Assembly (NCBI GenBank): GCA_938075155.1
Contig: CALJGL010000023.1
Span: forward strand, 42,987-106,986
Source: an uncultured bacterium
Lineage (GTDB): Bacteria > Planctomycetota > UBA8108 > UBA1146
Reading direction: 5' to 3'
DNA length: 64,000 nucleotides
Below are positions 14,181-53,195 of this stretch, in pieces (within the stretch, counting starts at the first letter, position 1; the number at the start of each line of letters is the position of its first letter). Made by a program: the position numbers and the translations under genes. The notes below the pieces were generated by a model. The model worked only from the letters and a program-made list of their open reading frames with translations, made no database searches and was not told the origin of the DNA.

Positions 14181-15098
14181 CTACGAAGTCGTGATTTCTG
14201 GGTCAGGAAGTTTGCTGTGGGGATGCTTTTGGTACTCCGCTGTCCGAGCCTCGCTGGTCAGGTGCCTGTATACCTGAGTGGTCGCGAGGTGCTTGTGACC
14301 GAGGAGCTCTTGAACTTCGCGAAGATTCGCTCCGCTATCCACCAAATGAGTGGCATAAGAATGCCTCAAAGTGTGAGGACTCGTTTTCTGATCTAAGCCG
14401 GCACGCCCGACATATCGATCAAAAATCTTGCGAATGGATCGGTCCGAAATTCGTTCTCCGAAACGATTGAGTAAAACAGGGACAGGGGCCCAGTTTCCAT
14501 TCTCTGGAATCCAGCGGGAGGGAATCGCTTCCCTGTAACTGATCAAAGATCGAATGGCATGTTCACCAATCGGTACGATTCTTTCCTTGCGACCCTTACC
14601 GAATGCTCGGACGAGGCGAATTTTGCTGTCGATATGGCACCAGTCGAGAGCCACAAGTTCACTCACCCTTAGTCCTGTACTGTAAAGGATTTCAAGGATG
14701 GCTCTGTCTCGCAATCCTCGATAAGTGTCGGTCTGGGGTTGGTCCAGTAATCGCATCACTTCCTGGATGGTGAGGAAGTGCGGGAGTGACCGCGGGACCT
14801 TTGGCGTATCCAGTTCGAGGAACGCGCAACGGCCTTCGAGTTTGTTTTCTCGTTGGAGAAACCGGAAGTAGCCCCGTACGGAAGCCAATTTACGGGCTAT
14901 CGTAGATCGGGAGTATCCCAGTTCTCCGAAGTGTGCAAGCCAGCGGCGCACCTCTTCGGTGCTTCTGGACACCAATTCCGAGAGATTATTAACTTGAAAG
15001 AACTCCTGAAGTTGCTCGAGATCTTTGCGATAGGCCCGGAGCGTCTCCGAACTTAGATTTCGCTCTGACTCGAGGTGCTGAAGGAATGAATCCATCAA
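14181..15098 (-). CDS. Tyrosine site-specific recombinase, XerC/XerD family
   Basis: N-terminal SAM-like domain (LESERNLSSETLRAYRKDLEQL). C-terminal catalytic HTLRHSYATHLVDSGANLREVQELLGHKHLATTQVYRHL with R..HxxR..Y. Confidence 0.85.
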   Translation of the reverse strand: MMDSFLQHLESERNLSSETLRAYRKDLEQLQEFFQVNNLSELVSRSTEEVRRWLAHFGELGYSRSTIARKLASVRGYFRFLQRENKLEGRCAFLELDTPKVPRSLPHFLTIQEVMRLLDQPQTDTYRGLRDRAILEILYSTGLRVSELVALDWCHIDSKIRLVRAFGKGRKERIVPIGEHAIRSLISYREAIPSRWIPENGNWAPVPVLLNRFGERISDRSIRKIFDRYVGRAGLDQKTSPHTLRHSYATHLVDSGANLREVQELLGHKHLATTQVYRHLTSEARTAEYQKHPHSKLPDPEITTS

Positions 15099-21484: not shown

Positions 21485-22765
21485 TTGGATATTCAAGAAG
21501 AAGTCTCCATCCGCGAATTGATTCTCGACAGAGAGACTCATATCGATTTCTACCATGAAGTTCGCCAAGGCGTGACTTCCCGCAGAGACGCGATCGATGA
21601 ACTCGAATCGCTTATCGATGAAATCACAGATGATTTCAGAAGGGCGATCGCCTTAGATCTTTTGGGAAAAAGGGAAGAGGCGAAGGGGTTCCTGCGTAAT
21701 TGCCAGGACAATGCCATGTGCGTTCACTTGCTTGGAAAACTCAGCCTTGAAGAGGGGAATTCCAAAGAAGCTTTGGTCGTCCTTGAAACAGGATGGGCCA
21801 GCTTTGGATCTGTCGTTCCTAGGATCGGCATGTTGCTTTGCGAAGCAATGATTCATGAGCATCGTATTGATGAGGCTCGTGCATTGCTCTCCAAGTTGCC
21901 CGACTCTGTCGATCACCCAAGAATTTGTTACCTCGAGGGTCTGCTTCACCAACATGAAGGTGACTACGACGAAGCCTTGCAATTCTACTCCACTGCAGCG
22001 GAGGGGCGTCCCGAGGAAACACGATTCCAGTTCCGCCTCGGATACATGCATTCTCTTTATGGTGACGAAGAGTCCGCCATTGAGGCATACCGTATGTGCC
22101 AGAGGAGTACTCCACTCTACGCCAGAGCGATGATTAATCTCGGGCTTCTCTACGAAGACACCGATCGATACGAGGAAGCGATCACCTGCTACCGCATGGT
22201 TCTGCTTTCCAACCCTGATCATAACCGTGCACGTCTCTATCTCCGCGATGCAGAAGCTTCCCAGTCGATGTACTACGATAGGGATAAGGAGAAGGAAAAG
22301 GTACGTATGGGGCAGGTCTTGCAAATACCTGTTACCGAATTTGAACTTTCAGTACGTAGCAGAAACTGCCTTCAAAAGATGGGGATTCACACTCTGGGTG
22401 ATCTCGTCTCAAAAACTGAAGCCGAGTTGCTCTCCTACAAGAACTTTGGTGAAACGAGTCTCCAGGAGATTCGCAAGATCTTGGTTCAAAAGAATCTTCG
22501 TCTCGGGGAAAATTCTCAGAGAGGTGAGACCTCTCTTCTGGGGATGGACAGTGAAGCTCAGGCATTGCTGGGTGAGCCTGTCAGTATTCTTGAGCTTTCC
22601 AGTCGCAGTCAAAGATGCATGGACCGACTCGGCATCGAAACGATCTCAGATCTTCTTCAGCGCAATGAGTTGGAATTAGTGAGCCAGAAAAATTTCGGAG
22701 TGACCTCCCTCAATGAGGTGAAGCGTAAACTGACCGAGCGTGGCTTAACTCTGACCAGCGGATAG
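21485..22765 (+). CDS. TPR-repeat protein with two C-terminal RNA-polymerase alpha-subunit CTD-like (HhH) domains
   Basis: TPR-like repeats in residues 60-260. Two copies of an alpha-CTD-like segment: VLQIPVTEFELSVRSRNCLQKMGIHTLGDLVSKTEAELLSYKNFGETSLQEIRKIL and ILELSSRSQRCMDRLGIETISDLLQRNELELVSQKNFGVTSLNEVKRKL. Compare E. coli RpoA [48 protein letters not shown]. Confidence 0.7.
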   Translation: MDIQEEVSIRELILDRETHIDFYHEVRQGVTSRRDAIDELESLIDEITDDFRRAIALDLLGKREEAKGFLRNCQDNAMCVHLLGKLSLEEGNSKEALVVLETGWASFGSVVPRIGMLLCEAMIHEHRIDEARALLSKLPDSVDHPRICYLEGLLHQHEGDYDEALQFYSTAAEGRPEETRFQFRLGYMHSLYGDEESAIEAYRMCQRSTPLYARAMINLGLLYEDTDRYEEAITCYRMVLLSNPDHNRARLYLRDAEASQSMYYDRDKEKEKVRMGQVLQIPVTEFELSVRSRNCLQKMGIHTLGDLVSKTEAELLSYKNFGETSLQEIRKILVQKNLRLGENSQRGETSLLGMDSEAQALLGEPVSILELSSRSQRCMDRLGIETISDLLQRNELELVSQKNFGVTSLNEVKRKLTERGLTLTSG

Positions 22766-27609: not shown

Positions 27610-28797
27610 ATGCCAGGTTTACTGCTCCTCCTCTCTTTGGCGACGCTCTTGGAAGATCCCCTTCTGCCAGAACCTTGGCGAGGGAAAGCTCTTTCCTTGG
27701 CACGCTCGGATCTCAGAAATTCTGATTCGATATCAGGGAAAGAGTCTTTTCGTCGAGATCTTGGCGAGCTGCTTTTTTATGCGACGGGTTTCTCTGAGAA
27801 TCCTTCGAACTCTTGTGCTTCTTGCCACGACGCAGAGAGAGCTTTTCAAGACCAACGATCACATCCGAGAGGCCTCCAAGGAATCGCGCGTGATACTCCA
27901 AGTCTGTGGGGCGTTTCTGGGCAGCGTTGGTGGGGCTGGGACGGGCGTTGGGACTCATTGTGGGCACAAGCTCTGGAGCCGATTGAATCCGTAGATGAAA
28001 TGGGGGGAGATCGCCTCATGCTCCTTCGTTGGATCGACGAGGATGATCAGAGAAGAGATTTGTTTGAAAAAGGATTTGGTCCGTTGCCTTCTTTGGCTGG
28101 TCTGCCGGAGAAAGCACGTTCCGGTTCTGATTGGCATCCGGACTATCTTCTCGTTTCGAAGTCGAGGCGAAAAGAAATAGATTTGGCTTTCTCGAAAGCG
28201 GGTCGATCTATCGCGGCATTTGAAGCCACTTTGGAGGCTCCTCGATCGTCATTTGACGATTATATCGACGCATTGGCGACGTCGGATCTTCATAAAGCTG
28301 AACTGTATCCTGCGGAAGCACGAAGAGGATTGATCTTATTTTTGGATAAGGGGCGATGCATTCTCTGCCACGGAGGACCCTTACTTTCAGATGGGGAGTT
28401 TCACGACACGGGATTGCTGACTTCTGGAAGTTCAGGAAAAGACTCTGGCAGATATGGCGGAATTCTTGAATTGAAGTCGAACCCTTTCAATCTTGAAGGG
28501 CAATTCTCAACGGCTTCTGAAATGGAAGGAGCCGATCGGACAAGAAGGTTGAAGAGAGATCCCTCTGTTTGGGGGGCATTTCGAACCCCTTCATTGAGGG
28601 GGATCCGTCACACCGCTCCTTATTTTCATGACGGAAGTCAGAAAGACTTAAAGAGTGTGATTCGATTTTATACTCGCAGAGATGGGGCTCGGAAAAAGAG
28701 CCAGGCGGCCGGGCACCACGGTGAAAATTTGATGGAAGAGCTCAATTTCACTCCGGGTGAGGAATATTTGCTGGAACGATTTCTGGAGACATTATAA
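27610..28797 (+). CDS. Di-heme cytochrome c peroxidase (CCP/MauG family)
   Basis: Two CxxCH motifs (CASCHDAERAF, CILCHGG). CCP signature FRTPSLRGIRHTAPYFHDGS...VIRFY. Confidence 0.85.
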   Translation: MPGLLLLLSLATLLEDPLLPEPWRGKALSLARSDLRNSDSISGKESFRRDLGELLFYATGFSENPSNSCASCHDAERAFQDQRSHPRGLQGIARDTPSLWGVSGQRWWGWDGRWDSLWAQALEPIESVDEMGGDRLMLLRWIDEDDQRRDLFEKGFGPLPSLAGLPEKARSGSDWHPDYLLVSKSRRKEIDLAFSKAGRSIAAFEATLEAPRSSFDDYIDALATSDLHKAELYPAEARRGLILFLDKGRCILCHGGPLLSDGEFHDTGLLTSGSSGKDSGRYGGILELKSNPFNLEGQFSTASEMEGADRTRRLKRDPSVWGAFRTPSLRGIRHTAPYFHDGSQKDLKSVIRFYTRRDGARKKSQAAGHHGENLMEELNFTPGEEYLLERFLETL

Positions 28798-34059: not shown

Positions 34060-34508
34060 ACCCCAATTTCTTCAATTCAACTTCAGTATTCAAATGCGGT
34101 AATATTTCAATGATCCATGCATTTGAATGTTTAACAATTGGGACTGGTTTATCCGTATAGGTGCCCGGAAATGCCTTCCTAGTGGCATTGGCCGCTTTTT
34201 TGTATGCCCGGAATATGCTTGAGTTGTCTTAATGTATTGTTAATATTGCGTTATTAGTCATTCGGTTTGTAGGGATATTGTAAGCCTGCATGTTAGTCGA
34301 TTGGGTGGCTGAAACGCATTGGCACAACGACGATAGCGGAGTTTCTACGACTCTGATTCGTCCTAAATTCCCCAACTTCGTTTGGGGAGAAATGGCTTCA
34401 GCGAGCCATCTGGGAGGAGACGAAATGTCAGATCTTCACATGAAGTCTGTACACACTGTTTCTAAGAGATTCGAATCCAAAGAATCTTGGCAGGGCAGTG
34501 ACGTCAAA

Positions 34509-37500
34509 ATGGTATTGCTCACATTATTCACGGTCTTTGTAATGGGCTACTGTAGCCCGGCGCTTGAGGCTCAATCAGATCCTGTCCCGCCGGCAGCTCC
34601 AACAAACCTCGAATGCATCGTTGAAGTGGCGCATTTGGAACTTTCTTGGACGAATACGGGCGAATACGATCAGATTCTGATTCGTCGTAACGGAGTCCTC
34701 CTAGAGTATCTCAATGGTTCTTCCACGAGTTACCTCGATATGGACGTCCCTGCCAATTTCCACCTTTATTCCGTTCATGGAATGACGACGGGTGCAAATG
34801 GTCAGGCTGAGGGTGTGGGAGCAGAGTGTTCTGTCTTCCTTATTCCGCCTCCCATCGAGCCAGGATTAGAAGTTCCTGCAGCGCTGAATTTCTTGCCCAT
34901 TCCCCTGCCCGACAATCTCTTCGACTTTATTGCTGATCCTGATATGGCGATTGCTTTGGGTAAGGCATTCTTCTGGGATATGCAGGCAGGATCTGATGAT
35001 CAAATCGCTTGTGCGACATGCCATTATCACGCCGGAGCTGACAACCGTAGAACTCATCAGTTGTACAACGGTCACAATGAAATTTTTGACCTGACTGTTG
35101 CAAACGAACGTCTTACTGCAACTGATTTCCCGCTCCATAAGCTGGCAAACCCGAATGATAATACGTCTGCTGTATTACAGAGTGTCGATGACACCATAGG
35201 GTCTTCAGGAATCTTGCATTCAAATTTCCTCTCTCTTACAGAGGACGCCAATGGAGTTGTTGGTGAAGAAATCGTCAGTATTGAAAATGCAGATAGCATC
35301 AAGGTCAATTCAGACGGTACGCAGGTACAAATGCGTAATGTCACAGACAGGAACGCTCCCTCTGTGATCAACTCCATCTACTTCCTTGAGACCTTCTGGG
35401 ATGGAAGAGCGTCTTTCTGGTTCAACGGAAGAGACAACTGGGGTCCGAGAAACCCCGATGCCTTTGTCTACAAGGTTCAGCCAGGTGGAACAGTGACTCA
35501 GGAAAAAATTCTGCTCGATAAAGCCTCATTGGCTTCTCAGGCTGCTGGTCCGATTCTGAGTGGCAACGAAATGTCTGCCCATGGACGAGACCTTCTTAAG
35601 GTTGGCAAAAAGTTGCTGAGCAGAGAGCCTTTGGCGACTCAAACAGTACACCCTAATGATAGTGTTCTCGGAGGAATGAGTGACGCTACAGACGGAAAAG
35701 GACTCGGTGAGACGACCTATCAGGAATTGATTCAATCTGCTTTTGTGACATCCTGGTGGGCGAGTGATCAGCTCTTCGGACCTGATCTTCAGCCTCTTAC
35801 AGATGTCGATGGAAACCTTCTCACTGGTGTTCCCAATGGCGTTGATCAGTTTTCAATGATGGAAGTCAACTTCTCCCTCTTCTGGGGATTGTCCATCATG
35901 ATGTATGAGTCCACCCTAGTTTCGGAAGACTCTCCTTACGACCGTTGGTGGAGAGCTACGAGAAATCCCGCGGATCCAAATGGCGACATTAATGCTCTCA
36001 GTTCTTTGGAGCATGAGGGAATGTCTGTCCTCGCCGGTTCAACCTGCATGTTCTGTCATACGACCTCTCTTTGGTCCAGTGCTGGAACCAGCAAGATTTT
36101 AACCGTACTCGAGCCAGAGGCTTCAGAGATCGAAGCTCTATTAGAGCGCATGCCGATGAGGGATATGCAACTTTCGGTCTATGATGGCGGATTCTACAAC
36201 CTTGGAGTGACTCCAACAGTTGAAGATATTGGTCGTGGTGGTATTGATCCATTCGGGCATAGTTTCTCGATTGTGAGAACGTTCCAAGAGAAAGCAAATA
36301 TTCCCAACTTGGATGATGACGGAGACGGCATTCCAAACGGAGCTGACCCCGATTTCATTGCTCATGATTTTCAGCCGTTTGCTGATCATGTTCTAGTTGT
36401 CACTCCTCCTCCTGCTCCTTGGGAAGATACGAACATGGATGGCATGTTCAAGACTCCCTCATTGCGAAACGTTGAGTTGACGGGACCATACTTCCACAAC
36501 GGAGGTGCTGGAACCCTTGAGCAAGTGGTGAACTTCTATGCACGCGGAGGAAACTTCGTTGACACAAACCTCGATACATTAGCTCCTGAAATGATCCCGC
36601 AGCCATTCCTCTCTATTAATGAGCAGAGGAAGTTGGCCATGGTGGCATTCATGGAATCACTGACAGATGACAGGGTTCGTTGGGAAAAAGCTCCTTTCGA
36701 TCACCCTGAAATCAGAGTTCCAGAAGGCGCGCTCGCGAGTGATCTCAATGGAGATGTGATCGCCGGCACGAATACCGTGGCTATCGATCGATTCAAGACA
36801 GTTCCTGCAGTAGGTGCTGAAGGTCGAAGTGTAGAGACTGATTCTGCCGGTCGTCCTCTTGATCCTCTGGTGAAGTTTCTTCAGCCAAGGACTGTCAAGG
36901 ATCTCTCATGCGTTCAGACTGGAGAATCGGTAACGATGTCTTGGCTTCCGCAGGAGTTCCCCAACGACGCTTCAACAAGTTTTAAGATTCTAAGAAACAA
37001 TCAAGTCGTTGCAGTTCTGCCCGAAACGGCAGCAAGCTTCACTGACGATTCGATTCCTCCGGGTGAGCATCAGTACACCGTTCGAGGTGAAGACGCCCAT
37101 GAAGGTTTCAATGCACATTGCACGGTCCTGGTGAACCCACCAGCACCTGTTGATCTGTCCTCGAATGTGAACGTGAATCAGGTGAGTTTGCAGTGGACAA
37201 ACCCCTGGCCTTACCACTCCATCGATATTTTCCGCGATGGCGTAAAAGTGGGTGATCAGTTAGCCGGTACTACTGAGATCTTTGTTGATGGCGGCGTGCC
37301 TGCTGGTCATCACTCCTACGAAGTTGTCGGAAGAATTCTGTCGATCGTTTCGGGTAATCTCATCTTCAGTGAACCTGCAATCGTTGGAGCCGACCGTCAT
37401 CCTCTCGCTGCACAAATCTTGGGCTGTACTTCAGTCGCAATGGGACAGAATGAGGTGACTTGGGGTAATACGGAGCCCTATGACTCACTGCGTTTGCTTC

Positions 37501-39176
37501 GCAATGGAACATTGATCAGTGAACTGGATGGTCAAGCATCGTCCTACCTCGATACCACCTCTTTACCGGGTGAGTCGAACTACTCGTTGATTGCAACAGT
37601 TTCCGGACTGGATTCGACTGAGTCTGGCTGTCTTGTGCAGCGTGCGCCACTTCCTGTGGAGTCACTCAGCTGTGATAACAATGGCGGGATCGCCGTGTTG
37701 TCTTGGGTGAATCCGGAGCCGTGGGAGCAAGCTGAAATCTATCGGGACGGTCAACTGATCAATATTTTGACTCAGATCCAAAATACCTATCAGGATGATT
37801 TCCTGACAAACTCTGGTTCTGGTCTTCACAACTACGTCATCAAGACTTACTTCGACGGTCTGACCTCAGGAGAAAACTCCTGTGGAATCTTGGTTGCACC
37901 GACTCCGGTCGTCTTGTTCGAGTGCGAGCCCCTCTCGGGTGGTGTTCTGCTTTCTTGGACCAATACAGATACTTACGACCAGATTCAGATCATGAGAGGC
38001 AGTGAGCTTCTGGTGAATTTGGGTGGTGGGTCAACTCAGACCTTCGATGGTCAAGTCGCCAGTGGTGCAGTGATTTACACACTGACGGCTTCTAGAGACA
38101 ACATTACTGCAAGTTCTGTCCAGTGCATGGTGACTATTCCTTCAGCACCAGTTTCAGATCTTGCTTGTTCAGATAGCGCTGGAGGCATCCAGCTTTCATG
38201 GACGAATGCCGACAACTATTCCACGATCGATATTCTTCGAAATGGATCTGTGGTAGACACCATCGCTGGTGCATCAAGTTCATACCTCGATAGTGCCGCC
38301 GGTGGTGGAACCTCGTTGTATCAGGTTGTTCCCAGCAGTAACGGAGTTGCTTCAGGCCTCTCCAACACCTGTGGCGGATCGATGGCACCGCTGCCCATAA
38401 CAGGGTTGCAAGGTCAGTTGATCGAGAACTGTCAGGGAGATGTGCTCTTGAGTTGGAGTAACGCGGAGTCTTACGATTCCATCCGCTTAGAGCGTAACGG
38501 TATTCCTGTAGTGACCTTGGCTGGATCTCAAACTGAGACAACGATCGACGTGGGTGCCCATGGGTTTTACGAGCTTGTGCTTGTTCCAGCGATGGACAAC
38601 ATTGATGGCCCCGCTGTGAGTACCAGTGTTGATTATGTTGCTGAAGTGGTTTCTGCGCCCACCGGATTCTCTGGAAGTGTCGATTCCGATACTTGTCAGG
38701 CGACTCTCTCTTGGTCAAACCAGGGGACTTACTCTCAGATTCAGATTGTTTCTGCAGGAGAAGTTCTGAGCACGCTTGCCGGTGGAGTGAGTTCCGCATT
38801 GATCAATCTTCCTGGTGCTGGTGGATACGTCCTTGATTTGGTCGTTATCGGAGAATGTGGCACTCAGGCGAGTTCCGCCGATTCTGTCGCTCTTGATTGT
38901 TCCGTGAGATTCCTACGAGGCGATCAAAATGGAGACGGAAGTCTGGATATCTCTGACCCGCTCTCATTACTCGGATTCATGTTTGGTGCCGGAGAAGTGA
39001 CCTGTGAGGACGCTTCTGACGCCAACGATGACGGTAATATCGACGTTTCTGACGCTGTACGCATGCTTCAGTACCTCTTTGGAGGGGCCAGCATACCAGC
39101 GCCGATAAACGGCTGTGGAGTCGATCCGACCGCTGATGGGTTGGGTTGTGAGCAGGGAGATCCGAGCTGCTCCTAG
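34509..39176 (+). CDS. Giant secreted protein of about 1555 aa: N-terminal di-heme cytochrome c peroxidase-like domain, an array of about ten ~85-aa Fn3/Ig-like modules, and a C-terminal dockerin-like module. The ORF track begins at 34290; Met at 34509 gives a signal peptide.
   Basis: Signal peptide [22 protein letters not shown]. CxxCH x2 ([16 protein letters not shown]) and CCP signature [31 protein letters not shown]. Repeating LSWTN....YD.I.I.RNG modules. C-terminus [23 protein letters not shown]...[22 protein letters not shown]...[12 protein letters not shown]...C. Confidence 0.75.
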   Translation: [1555 protein letters not shown]

Positions 39177-50127: not shown

Positions 50128-50171
50128 AAAAACCACCTTCAACTTTTGGAGTTAAAGGTGGTTTATTTTTT
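50125..50171. terminator. Bidirectional terminator between convergent genes
   Basis: A-run, then ccaccttcaact-tttgg-agttaaaggtgg hairpin (one mismatch), then T-run. Confidence 0.7.
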
Positions 50172-50190: not shown

Positions 50191-50769
50191 CTAGGCGCGA
50201 AGTTCGCTTCCAGCTAGGCGCACTACTCGACGAGCGAGTTCTTCCGGGTCAAAAGGTTTGGCGAGAATGTCGTCGGCACCCAAGAGGCGGGCTCTGTCCA
50301 ACTCGGCTTGCTCCATGGCACTGATCACCAAAATCTTGGTCTTGCTCAGTTCTGGGGCGAGTCTGACATATTCAATGACGTCGAATCCACCTAGACCAGG
50401 AACTCGAAGATCGAGTGTCATCACGCATGGGAGGTGCTCTCTCAAGAGTGATCCCGCAGTGAAGCCATCCTGAGCCATGAATACATCAAAGTTATGTTTT
50501 CTCAGGGTGATTTCGATGGCTTTGGAGACGGTGGGTTCTTTCTCGACGACGAGTACTCGACGCGCGAGGTGCAGGAAATCTCTCGGAATGGGAATGTTGT
50601 TTTCCCTTAGAAACGAGATGAAGTTGCTGATTTCGACGCGGTTATCTCCACGACCGGGCAGCTGATATGCACGTAGCTGACCACGCTGAATCCAGCGAAT
50701 AACTGTACGAAAGTTTACGCCGCAATAACTGGCGATTTCTCCCGTAGTAAGGGTTCTCTTATCGTTCAT
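50191..50769 (-). CDS. Response regulator with reversed architecture: N-terminal MerR/excisionase-type HTH and C-terminal receiver domain. The ORF track extends to 50814; the start at 50769 has a GAGGAG SD 7 nt upstream.
   Basis: HTH in LTTGEIASYCGVNFRTVIRWIQRGQLRAYQLPGRGDNRV. Receiver-like C-terminal half (VLVVEKEPT..., VMTLDLRVPGLGGFDVIEYV, KILVISAMEQ, DDILAKPFDPEEL) with a conserved Asp in TLDLRVPG and K in AKPF. Confidence 0.7.
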   Translation of the reverse strand: MNDKRTLTTGEIASYCGVNFRTVIRWIQRGQLRAYQLPGRGDNRVEISNFISFLRENNIPIPRDFLHLARRVLVVEKEPTVSKAIEITLRKHNFDVFMAQDGFTAGSLLREHLPCVMTLDLRVPGLGGFDVIEYVRLAPELSKTKILVISAMEQAELDRARLLGADDILAKPFDPEELARRVVRLAGSELRA

Positions 50770-51026
50770 CCCACACTCCTCGCACATTACTCTACCTCGG
50801 TTAACAAATTTCAACTCGCAATGAAATTTGTAGTGAAGTCGGAAATCCCAATTGTCGTAACTGATTGATTGGGTGCAGGTTCCGGCTTCTCTTGTAAATC
50901 AACTATACACATATTGTATGTTTGTTAGTCATTTTGTCAATAGTTAGGAATGTCTATATCCGGTCCTGCAGTCCCGATTGGCCAAAAAATACCGGAGTGA
51001 ACTCAAGTTCTTTATGTGTGTCTTAA

Positions 51027-53195
51027 TCAAGGACAGTTTTGTCCTGTTTGGCAGGGAAGGAAATCTTGTGTCGGCGTATCAATTCCACAAGTCGCTCCCG
51101 GTGCTGCCGGTGCTAAGCCACCTGAATAAAGAAAGAGAAGCATGAATACAGGGTCACTGATGTCGATGTTTCCATCATCGTTCGTATCCACAGCATCTAA
51201 ACAGGTGTGATTTACAGATTGGAACAGGATGGAAAGCTGAGAGGAGACATCCGCTAGGTTTCTAATCCCGTCCAAATTGACATCTCCACGAATAAACAGT
51301 GGGCCTGGACTCGGACAAAAGATCTGACAGCTGACGGGCAGAAGAAGAGCTCCACAGGTACTGACGGGTGTCAATATCGCTGTCGTATTCAATCCTAGAG
51401 GCGCAGGGAGTGTGACCGAGGTTACATTTCCCGGGAGGGTCAGTGAGGTCGCACCCAGTTGAAGATTAATAGAACTGTAACTGGATTCATTCACCCATGT
51501 CAGATCAGCGATACAGGTTGCTGTATCGAGATTGCAGATCAAATTGGAGATAGGGATCTGTGGAATCAGAGGAGGAACATTTATCTCACAACAACTTGCG
51601 CCTGTTGCGGGGGTGAACCCTCCCAGACTCGGTTCGACACAGTATGTCATCATTCCTGATAAACCTGGATCGTGGACGAGTGAAGTTTCGGTTCCTAATA
51701 CCGTCGTGATTGGCAATAATTGGGAGGGATCAGGTCCACCTGAAATGAGGAAAAAGTCTGCGGGGCCAGCGGACTCCCAATTCAGAGTGACTTCTTGCGA
51801 GCAAGGGTTGGGAATGCTGCATGAGAAATCGAGAAGAGGGAGAGGTCTTTGATCGTAGAAGATCGCTCCTAGGTCAGGAGCTGTGTTGTCGGGGTCTAAT
51901 CCGTACAGAGGGTCACCTGCGTCGATGGCGGGAGAATTGGGATCTAGTGAGAAATCTTCAATGAGTGGGTTCGTAAATACGGGGTCGAAGAGGAACACTG
52001 TTGATCCGGGATACCCCGAGGAAATGACGCTGTAGTCGACCTGCGCCAATGTTGGAATATCGATCTCCAAAGTAACTGGATTCCATAATAGGCAGTGATT
52101 CACAAGCAAGGTCGATAAAGCTCCTCCTGAATTTGTTGGAGGATAGAACACTCCTCCTGAACTTCCTCCTGAACTTCCTCCAGAGGTGTTTCCAGTGATG
52201 GTTGACCTGTGTATTTCAACTTCGGTCAGGTTGATCGTGGAAGCGATCGCACCACCATTGGTATTCGCGGTATTCGAAGCGATGATACTGGAGTTGATGC
52301 TGAGGGTTCCGCCGTCGAGTCCAATTCCTCCACCGCGGCTACTGAAGTTTCCTATGATAGATGAGGAATCGATCGTCGTCGTACTTTGATAAAGGGTGAT
52401 TGCTCCACCCAAAAGTGAAGCTTGATTATTACTCAGCTGAAGATTCGACATTGTGATGGCGGAGATTCTCGAATAGATTCCTCCTCCAATAATGGCGGAG
52501 TTATTCTGAAAGCTACATGTGTTGATGCTGACTTGAGAGCACAGATTGAGAGTGATTCCTCCTCCGGCTGTCAGTGAAGAGTTATTACTGAAGCTACAGT
52601 TCTGAAGATTGATGACTCCACAGTTGGACAGGTAGATTCCTGCGCCCTCCAATGCGTTATTGCCTGAGATCGACACATCGGAAAGATCGAGTGAAAGCGT
52701 TTCTTCTGCATAGAGCCCAGATCCGAATTCAGCAGAATTCCCACTGAGGACACAGTTTTTGATGGTGGGGGAGGCGATAAATATTCGAATCCCGCCCCCT
52801 CGTCGGTAAGTTCCAGAAGAATCGGTAATAGGCCTTCCCGTTCCTCCTGTGATTGTGAATCCGTCTAGTATGGCGAGTTCGGTTTCTCCACCGGAGAAGG
52901 TGACAGTGGCTCCTTCATCAGGGCCCAGAGTGAGCAGTGATCCATCGATCGTCGTTTGGTCTGATCCTGCTGTGGAAAGGATGGAGATGTCTTTTCCTAT
53001 GTATGAGAGGTTTTCTTGGTAGGTGCCAGGTGAGACTAAGATCTGGTCGCCCGAATAAGCAGCGAAGATCGCTTGCTGAATGGTGGGGTACTCCGAGGGG
53101 ACCAAGAGGTCGATCGCTTCTGCCTGTGTTACTGAAAAGCATAAGAAGAGAATCGATAGCATCGATTTCAGCGGTTTCAGGAGATTCAATGTCAT
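51027..53195 (-). CDS. Secreted right-handed parallel beta-helix (pectate-lyase-fold) protein with a C-terminal dockerin-like module
   Basis: Signal peptide MTLNLLKPLKSMLSILFLCFSVTQAEA. Numerous beta-helix rung repeats (NNSAIIGGGIY, GNFSSRGGGIGL, NTANTNGGAIA). C-terminus RGDVNLDGIRNLADVSSQLSILF...DTNDDGNIDISDPVFMLLFLYSGGLAPAAPGATCGIDTPTQDFLPC...C. Confidence 0.75.
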   Translation of the reverse strand: MTLNLLKPLKSMLSILFLCFSVTQAEAIDLLVPSEYPTIQQAIFAAYSGDQILVSPGTYQENLSYIGKDISILSTAGSDQTTIDGSLLTLGPDEGATVTFSGGETELAILDGFTITGGTGRPITDSSGTYRRGGGIRIFIASPTIKNCVLSGNSAEFGSGLYAEETLSLDLSDVSISGNNALEGAGIYLSNCGVINLQNCSFSNNSSLTAGGGITLNLCSQVSINTCSFQNNSAIIGGGIYSRISAITMSNLQLSNNQASLLGGAITLYQSTTTIDSSSIIGNFSSRGGGIGLDGGTLSINSSIIASNTANTNGGAIASTINLTEVEIHRSTITGNTSGGSSGGSSGGVFYPPTNSGGALSTLLVNHCLLWNPVTLEIDIPTLAQVDYSVISSGYPGSTVFLFDPVFTNPLIEDFSLDPNSPAIDAGDPLYGLDPDNTAPDLGAIFYDQRPLPLLDFSCSIPNPCSQEVTLNWESAGPADFFLISGGPDPSQLLPITTVLGTETSLVHDPGLSGMMTYCVEPSLGGFTPATGASCCEINVPPLIPQIPISNLICNLDTATCIADLTWVNESSYSSINLQLGATSLTLPGNVTSVTLPAPLGLNTTAILTPVSTCGALLLPVSCQIFCPSPGPLFIRGDVNLDGIRNLADVSSQLSILFQSVNHTCLDAVDTNDDGNIDISDPVFMLLFLYSGGLAPAAPGATCGIDTPTQDFLPCQTGQNCP

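Follow-up and report, generated by a model that had tools for sequence, protein, structure and literature searches.

The DNA analysed here (the window, a 64-kb stretch of contig CALJGL010000023.1 from an uncultured bacterium of the Planctomycetota) carries on its minus strand the gene of a small regulator, in which a helix-turn-helix (HTH) domain of the HTH_17 type precedes a receiver (REC) domain. The gene lies within a run of genes for large secreted proteins, and the locus raises the question of whether such a regulator still works as a phosphorylation-dependent switch. As judged from sequence comparison, it is probably no longer an ordinary phospho-switch, and we describe below the receiver residues, the selection history and the kinase linkage that bear on this reading, followed by the domain architecture, the family, the expression signals and the surrounding island. 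Residues are numbered throughout on the 192-amino-acid protein.

50191..50769, minus strand: coding sequence of the HTH_17-REC regulator, 192 amino acids, ATG start, stop codon included; placed from the open reading frame list and homologues of 185-207 amino acids

A lysine at a metal-ligand position of the receiver

We aligned the window protein with the receiver structure 3LTE, relatives and E. coli CheY. As a result, CheY D12, D13, D57, T87 and K109 corresponded to E76, K77, D120, S150 and K171, respectively. Residues were then counted over 121 proteins, namely the window protein and its 120 best database relatives.

50536..50544, minus strand: codons GAG AAA GAA of E76-K77-E78, with K77 at the Mg2+-ligand position of CheY D13
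50410..50412, minus strand: D120, the phospho-acceptor Asp (CheY D57); Asp in 121/121
50320..50322, minus strand: S150 (CheY T87); Ser in 120/121
50257..50259, minus strand: K171 (CheY K109) of the KPF motif; Lys in 121/121

At the D13 position, Asp was found in 117 of the 121 proteins, Lys in three (the window protein, a 93%-identical protein and a fragment) and Pro in one, and the Lys was restricted to the window protein and its closest relatives in this set. CheY-like receivers have two acidic Mg2+ ligands, of which the window protein has the first as E76 and carries K77 in place of the second, while the residues of the D57 and T87/K109 types are all in place as D120, S150 and K171. The first-pass annotation had quoted the motifs TTGEIASYCGVNFRTVIRWIQRGQL for the HTH, TLDLRVPG for the phospho-acceptor and AKPF for the conserved Lys; all three are present and aligned, TLDLRVPG with D120 and AKPF with K171. 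Its expectation that the conserved receiver residues would line up with CheY thus held for the Asp, the Lys and, as Ser, the Thr position, but not for the acidic pocket, which is incomplete. Since D120 is kept, the window protein is not one of the aspartate-less receivers.

Lys at this position has been described both as a mutation and as a natural residue. CheY D13K is poorly phosphorylated yet constitutively active, and the corresponding mutation lets other regulators bypass their kinases (PMC4671073; bioRxiv 10.1101/781468). A 2026 study linked a natural Lys at the Mg2+-ligand position of a diguanylate-cyclase receiver to poor phosphorylation by small-molecule donors (PMC13501900), and phosphorylation-independent receivers often have Lys at the D13 position, among them RitR, whose E9-K10 pair is identical to E76-K77 of the window protein (PMC4395418). 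CheY D13K and the diguanylate cyclase CpRldC thus share with the window protein a Lys at the second Mg2+-binding acidic position, whereas aspartate-less receivers such as RitR have lost the phospho-acceptor Asp that the window protein retains. In output domain and domain order, CheY D13K, CpRldC, RitR and the HP1043-type proteins are all unlike the window protein. The earlier suggestion of an orphan regulator fed by a distal kinase is therefore weakened by K77 at this Mg2+-ligand position.

History of the lysine and selection on the receiver

The residues at positions 76-78 and codon 77 were tabulated for 21 species.

Window and L009-L014 (seven genomes): E-K-E, codon AAA
L015: E-N-D, codon AAT
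Remaining species with 83-88% identity: E-D-D, codon GAT or GAC
Outgroup with 68-71% identity: D-D-D, codon GAC

K77 is fixed in the seven genomes, and the codons suggest a possible stepwise path from GAT through AAT to AAA, in which the Asn of L015 may represent a one-step intermediate. We also estimated nonsynonymous (dN) and synonymous (dS) divergence by the Nei-Gojobori method. Receiver dN/dS was nearly equal in the Lys clade (0.033) and the Asp clade (0.034), and between the two clades dN reached 0.170 in the receiver versus 0.044 in the HTH. Indeed, all 15 fixed differences between the Lys and Asp clades fall in the receiver, comprising K77 and fourteen others (positions 77, 78, 80, 83, 87, 98, 123, 140, 143, 154, 155, 170, 174, 180 and 188). 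The changed positions 80, 83 and 87 sit in helix alpha1, the usual kinase-docking surface of receivers. Taken at the sequence level, these differences suggest that function shifted in the receiver specifically and that constraint was then renewed.

The loss of a catalytic residue and the burst of 15 receiver substitutions would also be expected of a decaying relic, with only the HTH still of importance. Since dN/dS is about 0.03 in the Lys clade, the same as in the canonical sisters, the receiver is not decaying and the selection analysis contradicts this explanation. Furthermore, the reading frame is intact in seven species, and the AlphaFold2 model is a confident one with two compact domains (predicted local distance difference test (pLDDT) 91, predicted template-modelling score (pTM) 0.81). 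We consider a decaying relic hardly credible; a pseudogenised receiver was rejected on the dN/dS of 0.03.

Kinase linkage

The neighbourhoods of 88 loci were scanned for kinases with phmmer; the seeds, run against all open reading frames, were the catalytic regions of three kinases encoded at related loci. Of the 49 non-marine loci with an acidic D13 position, 35 had a histidine kinase no more than 6 kb away, often immediately adjacent (e.g. L005-L007), while none of the ten non-marine loci with a non-acidic D13 position had one within that distance. Since kinases lie near 35 of the 49 canonical relatives, the HTH_17-REC family basically consists of two-component regulators. Planctomycetaceae account for most of the ten non-acidic loci, with END or ESD as the acidic-position residues. 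In the majority of these, the Ser has changed to Ala and the Lys to Gln or Arg as well, which makes them clear pseudo-receivers. The correlation of a non-acidic pocket with kinase absence is suggestive, the ten loci representing about three lineages rather than independent cases. The scan detected no kinase closer than 6 kb to the regulator at any of the 28 loci of the marine Planctomycetota clade, in which regulator identities are 68-100%. Likewise, no HisKA or HATPase_c domain was detected in any open reading frame of at least 150 amino acids across the 64-kb window, in agreement with the earlier remark that no histidine kinase gene is adjacent.

These data also bear on a more conventional explanation, in which the window protein is an orphan response regulator whose D120 is phosphorylated by an unlinked kinase, with K77 tuning metal affinity or autodephosphorylation kinetics. 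The retention and invariance of the phospho-acceptor Asp, the Ser, the Lys and the first acidic residue constitute its main support, together with the strong purifying selection on the receiver, the kinase linkage of the family elsewhere and the canonical sister species that are likewise orphans. However, the residue replaced by K77 is a direct Mg2+ ligand, phosphorylation of CheY D13K is poor (PMC4671073), and the natural Lys variant resisted small-molecule phosphodonors (PMC13501900). In addition, a kinase stands near none of the 17 family loci with a non-acidic D13 position, and the Planctomycetaceae branch later lost the Ser and Lys too. Conventional phosphotransfer to D120 is possible in our view, though doubtful.

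Domain architecture and fold

The two domains were located with Pfam as follows.

50599..50751, minus strand: HTH_17 (PF12728) winged helix, residues 7-57, BldC/Xis/MerR-like; 28.8-29.0 bits against a cutoff of 27
50224..50556, minus strand: receiver (REC, PF00072), residues 72-182; 62.5-62.8 bits against a cutoff of 30.2

HTH_17 followed by Response_reg, both above the Pfam cutoffs, confirmed the proposed succession of a MerR/excisionase-type HTH and a receiver. The HTH_17 match exceeds the curated cutoff but is marginal (the L076 homologue scores 35.3 bits), while the Response_reg match spans profile positions 1-110 of 111. NCBIfam returned generic receiver matches only and no dedicated full-length model. 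With the C-terminal half, 208 PDB receivers were matched at E<=0.01, the best being 3LTE (E=1.3e-21).

3LTE, a receiver of Bermanella marisrubri solved by structural genomics, is 41% identical to the window protein over the whole receiver and 43-51% identical to family receivers, and it shares the family motifs MTLDLxMP, KILVVS and GADDxLxKPF. Since the database proteins closest to it (86% and 77% identity) are 185-amino-acid HTH_17+REC proteins, 3LTE is probably the receiver of a family member. It differs from the window protein in its canonical acidic residues, DDD versus E-K-E, and it was crystallised as the receiver alone, with neither HTH nor domain interface. No functional paper on 3LTE was found in the literature.

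We modelled the full-length protein with AlphaFold2 from a 34-sequence alignment, which gave a compact two-domain arrangement with a pLDDT of 91.4 and a pTM of 0.81. The N-terminal elements (strand 6-8, helices 9-16 and 20-28, strand 43-46 as the wing, and helix 47-56) show winged-helix topology, and the receiver forms five alternating beta/alpha units in a flavodoxin-like fold. In Foldseek comparisons, the receiver matched RR468, PhoB, DivK and 3LTE with a template-modelling (TM) score of 0.9 and root-mean-square deviations of 0.9-1.6 A, while a search of the PDB with the whole protein returned receiver matches only, and no solved structure with the HTH_17-REC architecture. When the HTH was modelled alone (pLDDT 89.7), the top Foldseek matches were BldC (6AMA/6AMK), RacA and Pukovnik Xis, with TM scores to the target of 0.77-0.85 and a probability of 1.0, but E-values of only about 0.01-0.05; RdfS was also among the closest folds, and the wing-helix heads of SoxR, NmlR, MtaN and CarH ranked lower. 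A sequence profile of the HTH against the PDB similarly matched BldC (E=0.013) and the CarH-like cobalamin-binding protein 8JBS (E=0.027). In the full-length model, a short linker joins the wing-helix head to the receiver, with no long MerR coiled-coil helix.

The head is thus modelled as a winged helix of the MerR-like, excisionase type that lacks the MerR coiled coil. It would not belong to the MerR family proper, because the Pfam MerR score of 15.4 bits is under the cutoff of 28.2 and the coiled coil is missing; the spacer of the regulator's own promoter, 16 nt, also differs from the 19-20 nt typical of MerR targets. The first-pass annotation had regarded the domain order as inverted. However, MerR-type regulators normally have the HTH first and the sensor last, so that the order is no inversion, and CarH-type MerR regulators (5C8F, 8JBS) likewise place the HTH first and a Rossmann/flavodoxin-like sensor last. 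In these, the sensor binds cobalamin, whereas the window protein has a receiver instead and no MerR coiled coil.

BldC of Streptomyces (6AMA/6AMK), Pukovnik Xis (4J2N) and RdfS (8DGL) have the same MerR-like winged helix without coiled coil and are the best counterparts for residues 1-68. BldC binds direct repeats as head-to-tail cooperative multimers, which suggests that a monomeric wing-helix unit needs an external aid to oligomerisation. Unlike the window protein, BldC and Xis consist of this one domain and have no sensory part; their similarity to the window HTH is weak (E of about 0.01, 26-31% identity), and the GRGDNR wing motif is found in the HTH_17-REC family only, not in BldC or Xis.

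Since HTH_17 is an excisionase-type fold, with Pukovnik Xis and RdfS among the structural neighbours, and a tyrosine recombinase gene is present in the window at 14181-15098, the protein might instead be an excisionase, a recombination directionality factor or a DNA-bending protein of a mobile element that carries a receiver, and not a transcription factor. Against this, the recombinase is 35 kb off and looks like XerC/D, the regulator gene is chromosomal and syntenic in at least 24 species, it is single-copy and stands beside kinases in other phyla, its closest structural match is the transcription regulator BldC, and the flanks contain no att-like repeats or phage genes. Such a role is thus very improbable, and an excisionase function was rejected in view of the stable chromosomal synteny and the lack of a nearby recombinase.

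PhyR, of the general stress response in Alphaproteobacteria, is the best-known regulator with an N-terminal output domain and a C-terminal receiver. The N-terminal domain of PhyR is sigma-factor-like and acts by partner switching with no DNA binding, whereas no sigma-like domain was found in the window protein by Pfam or NCBIfam scans, and PhyR-like partner switching was rejected on this basis.

The HTH_17-REC family

A word-indexed search returned 888 relatives (best E=1.5e-114, 100% coverage). Almost all of the best 120 are HTH_17+REC proteins of 185-207 amino acids, with PF12728 precomputed for nearly all, and their source names are 'response regulator' or 'excisionase family DNA binding protein' only. 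HMMER against 1.84 billion representatives at 50% identity gave 122 matches at E<=1e-30, mostly full-length two-domain proteins, and clustering at 50% identity divides the family into about a hundred groups. When one genome of each GTDB species was scanned with a sequence pattern, 408 loci were located in at least seven phyla (Planctomycetota, Acidobacteriota (Thermoanaerobaculia), Latescibacterota, Gemmatimonadota, Melainabacteria, Deltaproteobacteria and Gammaproteobacteria). The gammaproteobacterial hosts include cultured Simiduia, Maricurvus and Pseudomaricurvus, and Cellvibrionaceae are represented. The domain order, earlier taken as a peculiarity of this gene, therefore defines a cross-phylum family, to which 888 matches and 408 loci attest.

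The HTH of the family has the signature LTTGEIAxYCGVNFRTVIRW...LPGRGDNR, and 25 of its 68 positions are invariant across phyla, all 25 of which are carried by the window protein. Mean column identity is 71% in the HTH versus 58% over the full-length alignment. On these grounds, we assign the window protein to an unnamed HTH_17-REC family of 185-205 amino acids. The regulator is 100% identical to that of the metagenome-assembled genome (MAG) Planctomycetota bacterium BS30m-G49, whose neighbouring proteins are 91-98% identical.

A full-text literature search found no functional study of HTH_17-receiver regulators, which may still have been studied. Receiver-last regulators, atypical receivers, natural receivers with Lys at D13 and the HTH_17-REC architecture as a database entry are already known, and what is new is modest: an apparently unstudied family, its unusually invariant DNA-binding head and a graded series of receivers within it. 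This natural series toward phosphorylation independence runs from kinase-linked canonical receivers through orphan canonical, Asn-D13 and Lys-D13 receivers to the fully degenerate ones of Planctomycetaceae. Response regulators are well understood, yet HTH_17-REC proteins occur in hundreds of species, cultured Cellvibrionaceae among them, and in architecture they are closer to MerR-type regulators than to classical response regulators.

Two family paralogues were found per genome in one Latescibacterota MAG (L078 and L082) and one Planctomycetaceae MAG (L072 and L087). The paralogues within a genome have near-identical recognition helices with differing receivers and neighbouring kinases, an arrangement by which several inputs could act through common DNA sites.

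A second family branch with a more degenerate receiver was observed in Planctomycetaceae (L047, L051, L076, L077, L079, L080 and L084-L086). In these nine loci, Asn or Ser stands at the D13 position and Ala at the T87 position; at the K109 position, L047 and L051 keep the Lys and the other seven have Gln or Arg. The phospho-acceptor Asp and the HTH are intact, and no kinase lies within 6 kb. The neighbours of L076 are of a housekeeping kind (malate dehydrogenase, RNase PH and an HtrA-like protease). Since distant family members occur in unrelated contexts, the link to the secreted-protein island is clade-specific.

A proposed phosphorylation-independent regulator of the island

How might such a protein act? 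For the family as a whole, we infer that the BldC/Xis-like head, monomeric and without the MerR coiled coil, cannot dimerise alone, and that the receiver would supply either regulated oligomerisation or an intramolecular occlusion of the HTH, so that receiver activation would decide the cooperative seating of several HTH units on DNA. In most phyla, the receiver would be a normal phospho-acceptor with the neighbouring histidine kinase as its partner. In the window lineage, Lys77 may fill or block the metal site, and the protein would then be a functional atypical regulator with a natural receiver of the CheY-D13K type, its output being largely or wholly independent of Asp phosphorylation. Its activity could be set by expression, through its own promoter and a structured 5' untranslated region (5'UTR), or by a non-phosphoryl input, and its targets would most likely be the genes of the secreted-protein island to which it stayed linked. 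Taking the whole package together, we lean slightly towards a phosphorylation-independent HTH_17-REC regulator that controls the linked island.

Several observations weigh against this proposal. D120, S150, K171 and E76 are all retained and conserved, as expected if phosphotransfer matters, and what D13K does has been established in CheY and a handful of other proteins, from which it need not carry over. A distal kinase may lie outside the 64-kb window, and the Asp-type marine sister species have no nearby kinase either, so that orphan status predates the Lys and is by itself no proof of phosphorylation independence. As to the substitution rates, dS is saturated, and the acceleration on the stem branch is a contrast in dN, not a formal branch test. 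Synteny inside one clade may reflect descent rather than function. Finally, no DNA target emerged: no operator-like motif was common to the regulator and island promoters, or across phyla.

A bolder version would make the family an unrecognised cross-phylum regulator, whose near-invariant head (25 of 68 residues identical between Planctomycetota and Gammaproteobacteria, and one recognition helix common to several paralogues in a genome) reads one universal DNA feature or contacts RNA polymerase while varied receivers and kinases feed in; marine Planctomycetota would then have rewired it, by a change of the D13K type, into a phosphorylation-independent switch over a hypervariable island of dockerin- and adhesin-like proteins. 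We regard this version as rather improbable. For the phosphorylation-independent regulator favoured here, current understanding is not overturned, and the locus offers a well-defined, testable case rather than a surprise. The regulator is the only one embedded in the fast-evolving island of giant secreted proteins, hence an obvious handle on island control.

Start codon and expression signals

The open reading frame on the minus strand covers 50191..50814 and has 207 amino acids when read from TTG 50814, the start assumed in the first-pass annotation. The translation start is placed instead at ATG 50769, 45 nt downstream, because of the homologue N-termini, the 192-amino-acid calls in syntenic contigs and a conserved Shine-Dalgarno sequence. 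MxxKR.LTTG forms the N-terminus of every homologue in the alignment, the syntenic contigs have the gene annotated as 192 amino acids, and the region with TTG 50814 shows indels that are not multiples of three across species in the upstream alignment. The HTH remains part of the protein with the corrected start. The control elements of the gene were placed as follows.

50776..50783, minus strand: Shine-Dalgarno sequence GCGAGGAG, 6 nt 5' of the ATG; a conserved block across species in the upstream alignment
50913..50940, minus strand: the regulator's own promoter, TTGACA-16 nt spacer-TACAAT; 11 of 12 positions match in a consensus scan
50805..50830, minus strand: 5'UTR hairpin with an 8-bp stem and the invariant loop UUGCGAGU; RNAalifold on seven species and single-sequence fold
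50130..50164, no strand assigned: bidirectional intrinsic terminator, 15-bp stem between an A-run and a T-run, -22.1 kcal/mol, z = -4.97

Both promoter hexamers and much of the spacer were kept in 21 of 21 aligned marine-clade loci (at least 83% protein identity), with scrambled flanks, and the regulator is predicted to have its own conserved promoter of the sigma-70 type. The resulting 5'UTR is about 140 nt long (50770-50912, minus strand). In its hairpin, five of the eight stem pairs show compensatory two-sided changes by RNAalifold among seven Lys-clade species, and TTG 50814 falls in the 3' arm. The 5'UTR structure may serve to control the regulator gene post-transcriptionally; an Rfam scan of the gene flanks, including the hairpin, gave no significant match. 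A second stem, GCCGG...CCGGC, was noticed upstream of the UUGCGAGU hairpin. The leaders of the Asp clade fold differently, with the CTTTCCTC stretch pairing with GAGGAAG right before the Shine-Dalgarno sequence.

The strong terminator at 50130-50164 is common to the regulator and the convergent FG-GAP/dockerin gene. Bidirectional terminators had been proposed on both sides of the gene, and this downstream one was recovered, but neither the terminator scan nor folding revealed one between the upstream 722-amino-acid gene and the regulator. The proposed monocistronic transcription is plausible, with read-through from the 722-amino-acid gene also possible.

A 12-nt element, CAGTCCAGACAG, abuts TTGACA on the upstream side of the -35 hexamer in L001 and L015-L028 (e.g. 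L018 5790-5807). It is single-copy per locus and identical in 11 of the 12 Asp-type species checked, with two mismatches in L017, amid unalignable surroundings. The Lys clade, including the window, has an ACATTC..-type sequence in its place, and CAGTCCAGACAG is possibly an activator or UP-type site and may have changed in step with the receiver.

The conserved promoter core AATGACTAACAAACATACAAT has one occurrence in the window at three or fewer mismatches, and no shared island operator was found with it. K-mer enrichment in the 250 nt upstream of 31 non-redundant family members yielded only TTGACA and a Cellvibrionaceae-specific word of a kinase promoter, and this cross-phylum upstream search gave no evidence for a conserved autoregulatory site.

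Genomic setting

Large secreted proteins with repeats are encoded from about 29 to 58 kb of the window; they carry Dockerin_1, Cadherin/Big_9, He_PIG, FG-GAP and PMP-like domains. The gene order of a divergent He_PIG gene, the 722-amino-acid PMP-like gene and the regulator is kept wherever a marine-clade locus has enough flanking sequence, even where regulator identity falls to 68%. The convergent FG-GAP/dockerin gene comes next in all 20 loci of at least 83% identity that reach far enough, and in the four loci of 68-71% identity the nearest downstream match is a 263-amino-acid hypothetical protein. Synteny around the chromosomal regulator gene extends over at least 24 species, and the neighbouring proteins have diverged to 34-56% identity. 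By these comparisons, the regulator is the slowly evolving fixed point of a fast-evolving island.

The gene had also been placed between dockerin-protein genes. This is correct for the downstream neighbour, which has a Pfam-detectable dockerin, but at the C-terminus of the upstream 722-amino-acid protein Pfam detected no dockerin and gave only a weak EF-hand_5 match (E=0.09). By eye, two Ca2+-loop-like repeats that resemble a dockerin, DVNLDGIRNLAD and DTNDDGNIDISD, can be seen in this C-terminus (51027-51299, minus strand), which may be a divergent planctomycete dockerin-like module.

Other proteins of the window were noted in passing. A 1628-amino-acid protein (34290-39176, plus strand) combines segments of CCP_MauG di-haem cytochrome c peroxidase with an RGI-lyase-like beta-sheet domain and a weak dockerin, and a separate CCP_MauG protein of 395 amino acids is encoded at 27610-28797 (plus strand); these are redox-enzyme modules inside the secreted-protein island. 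At 21485-22765 (plus strand), adjoining ruvA, a 426-amino-acid protein carries tetratricopeptide (TPR) repeats and two copies of RNA_pol_A_CTD (E=3.4e-41, two stretches), an unusual fusion. The tyrosine recombinase at 14181-15098 (minus strand) is of the XerC/D type, with Phage_integrase and a SAM-like N-terminal domain, about 35 kb from the regulator and with no apparent link to the HTH_17 protein. Finally, L023 (QNYK01000094.1) and L032 (JAFMMO010000007.1) are titled as Bacillota and Proteobacteria MAGs, respectively, yet are fully syntenic with the marine Planctomycetota island, and these bins are probably mislabelled or contaminated.

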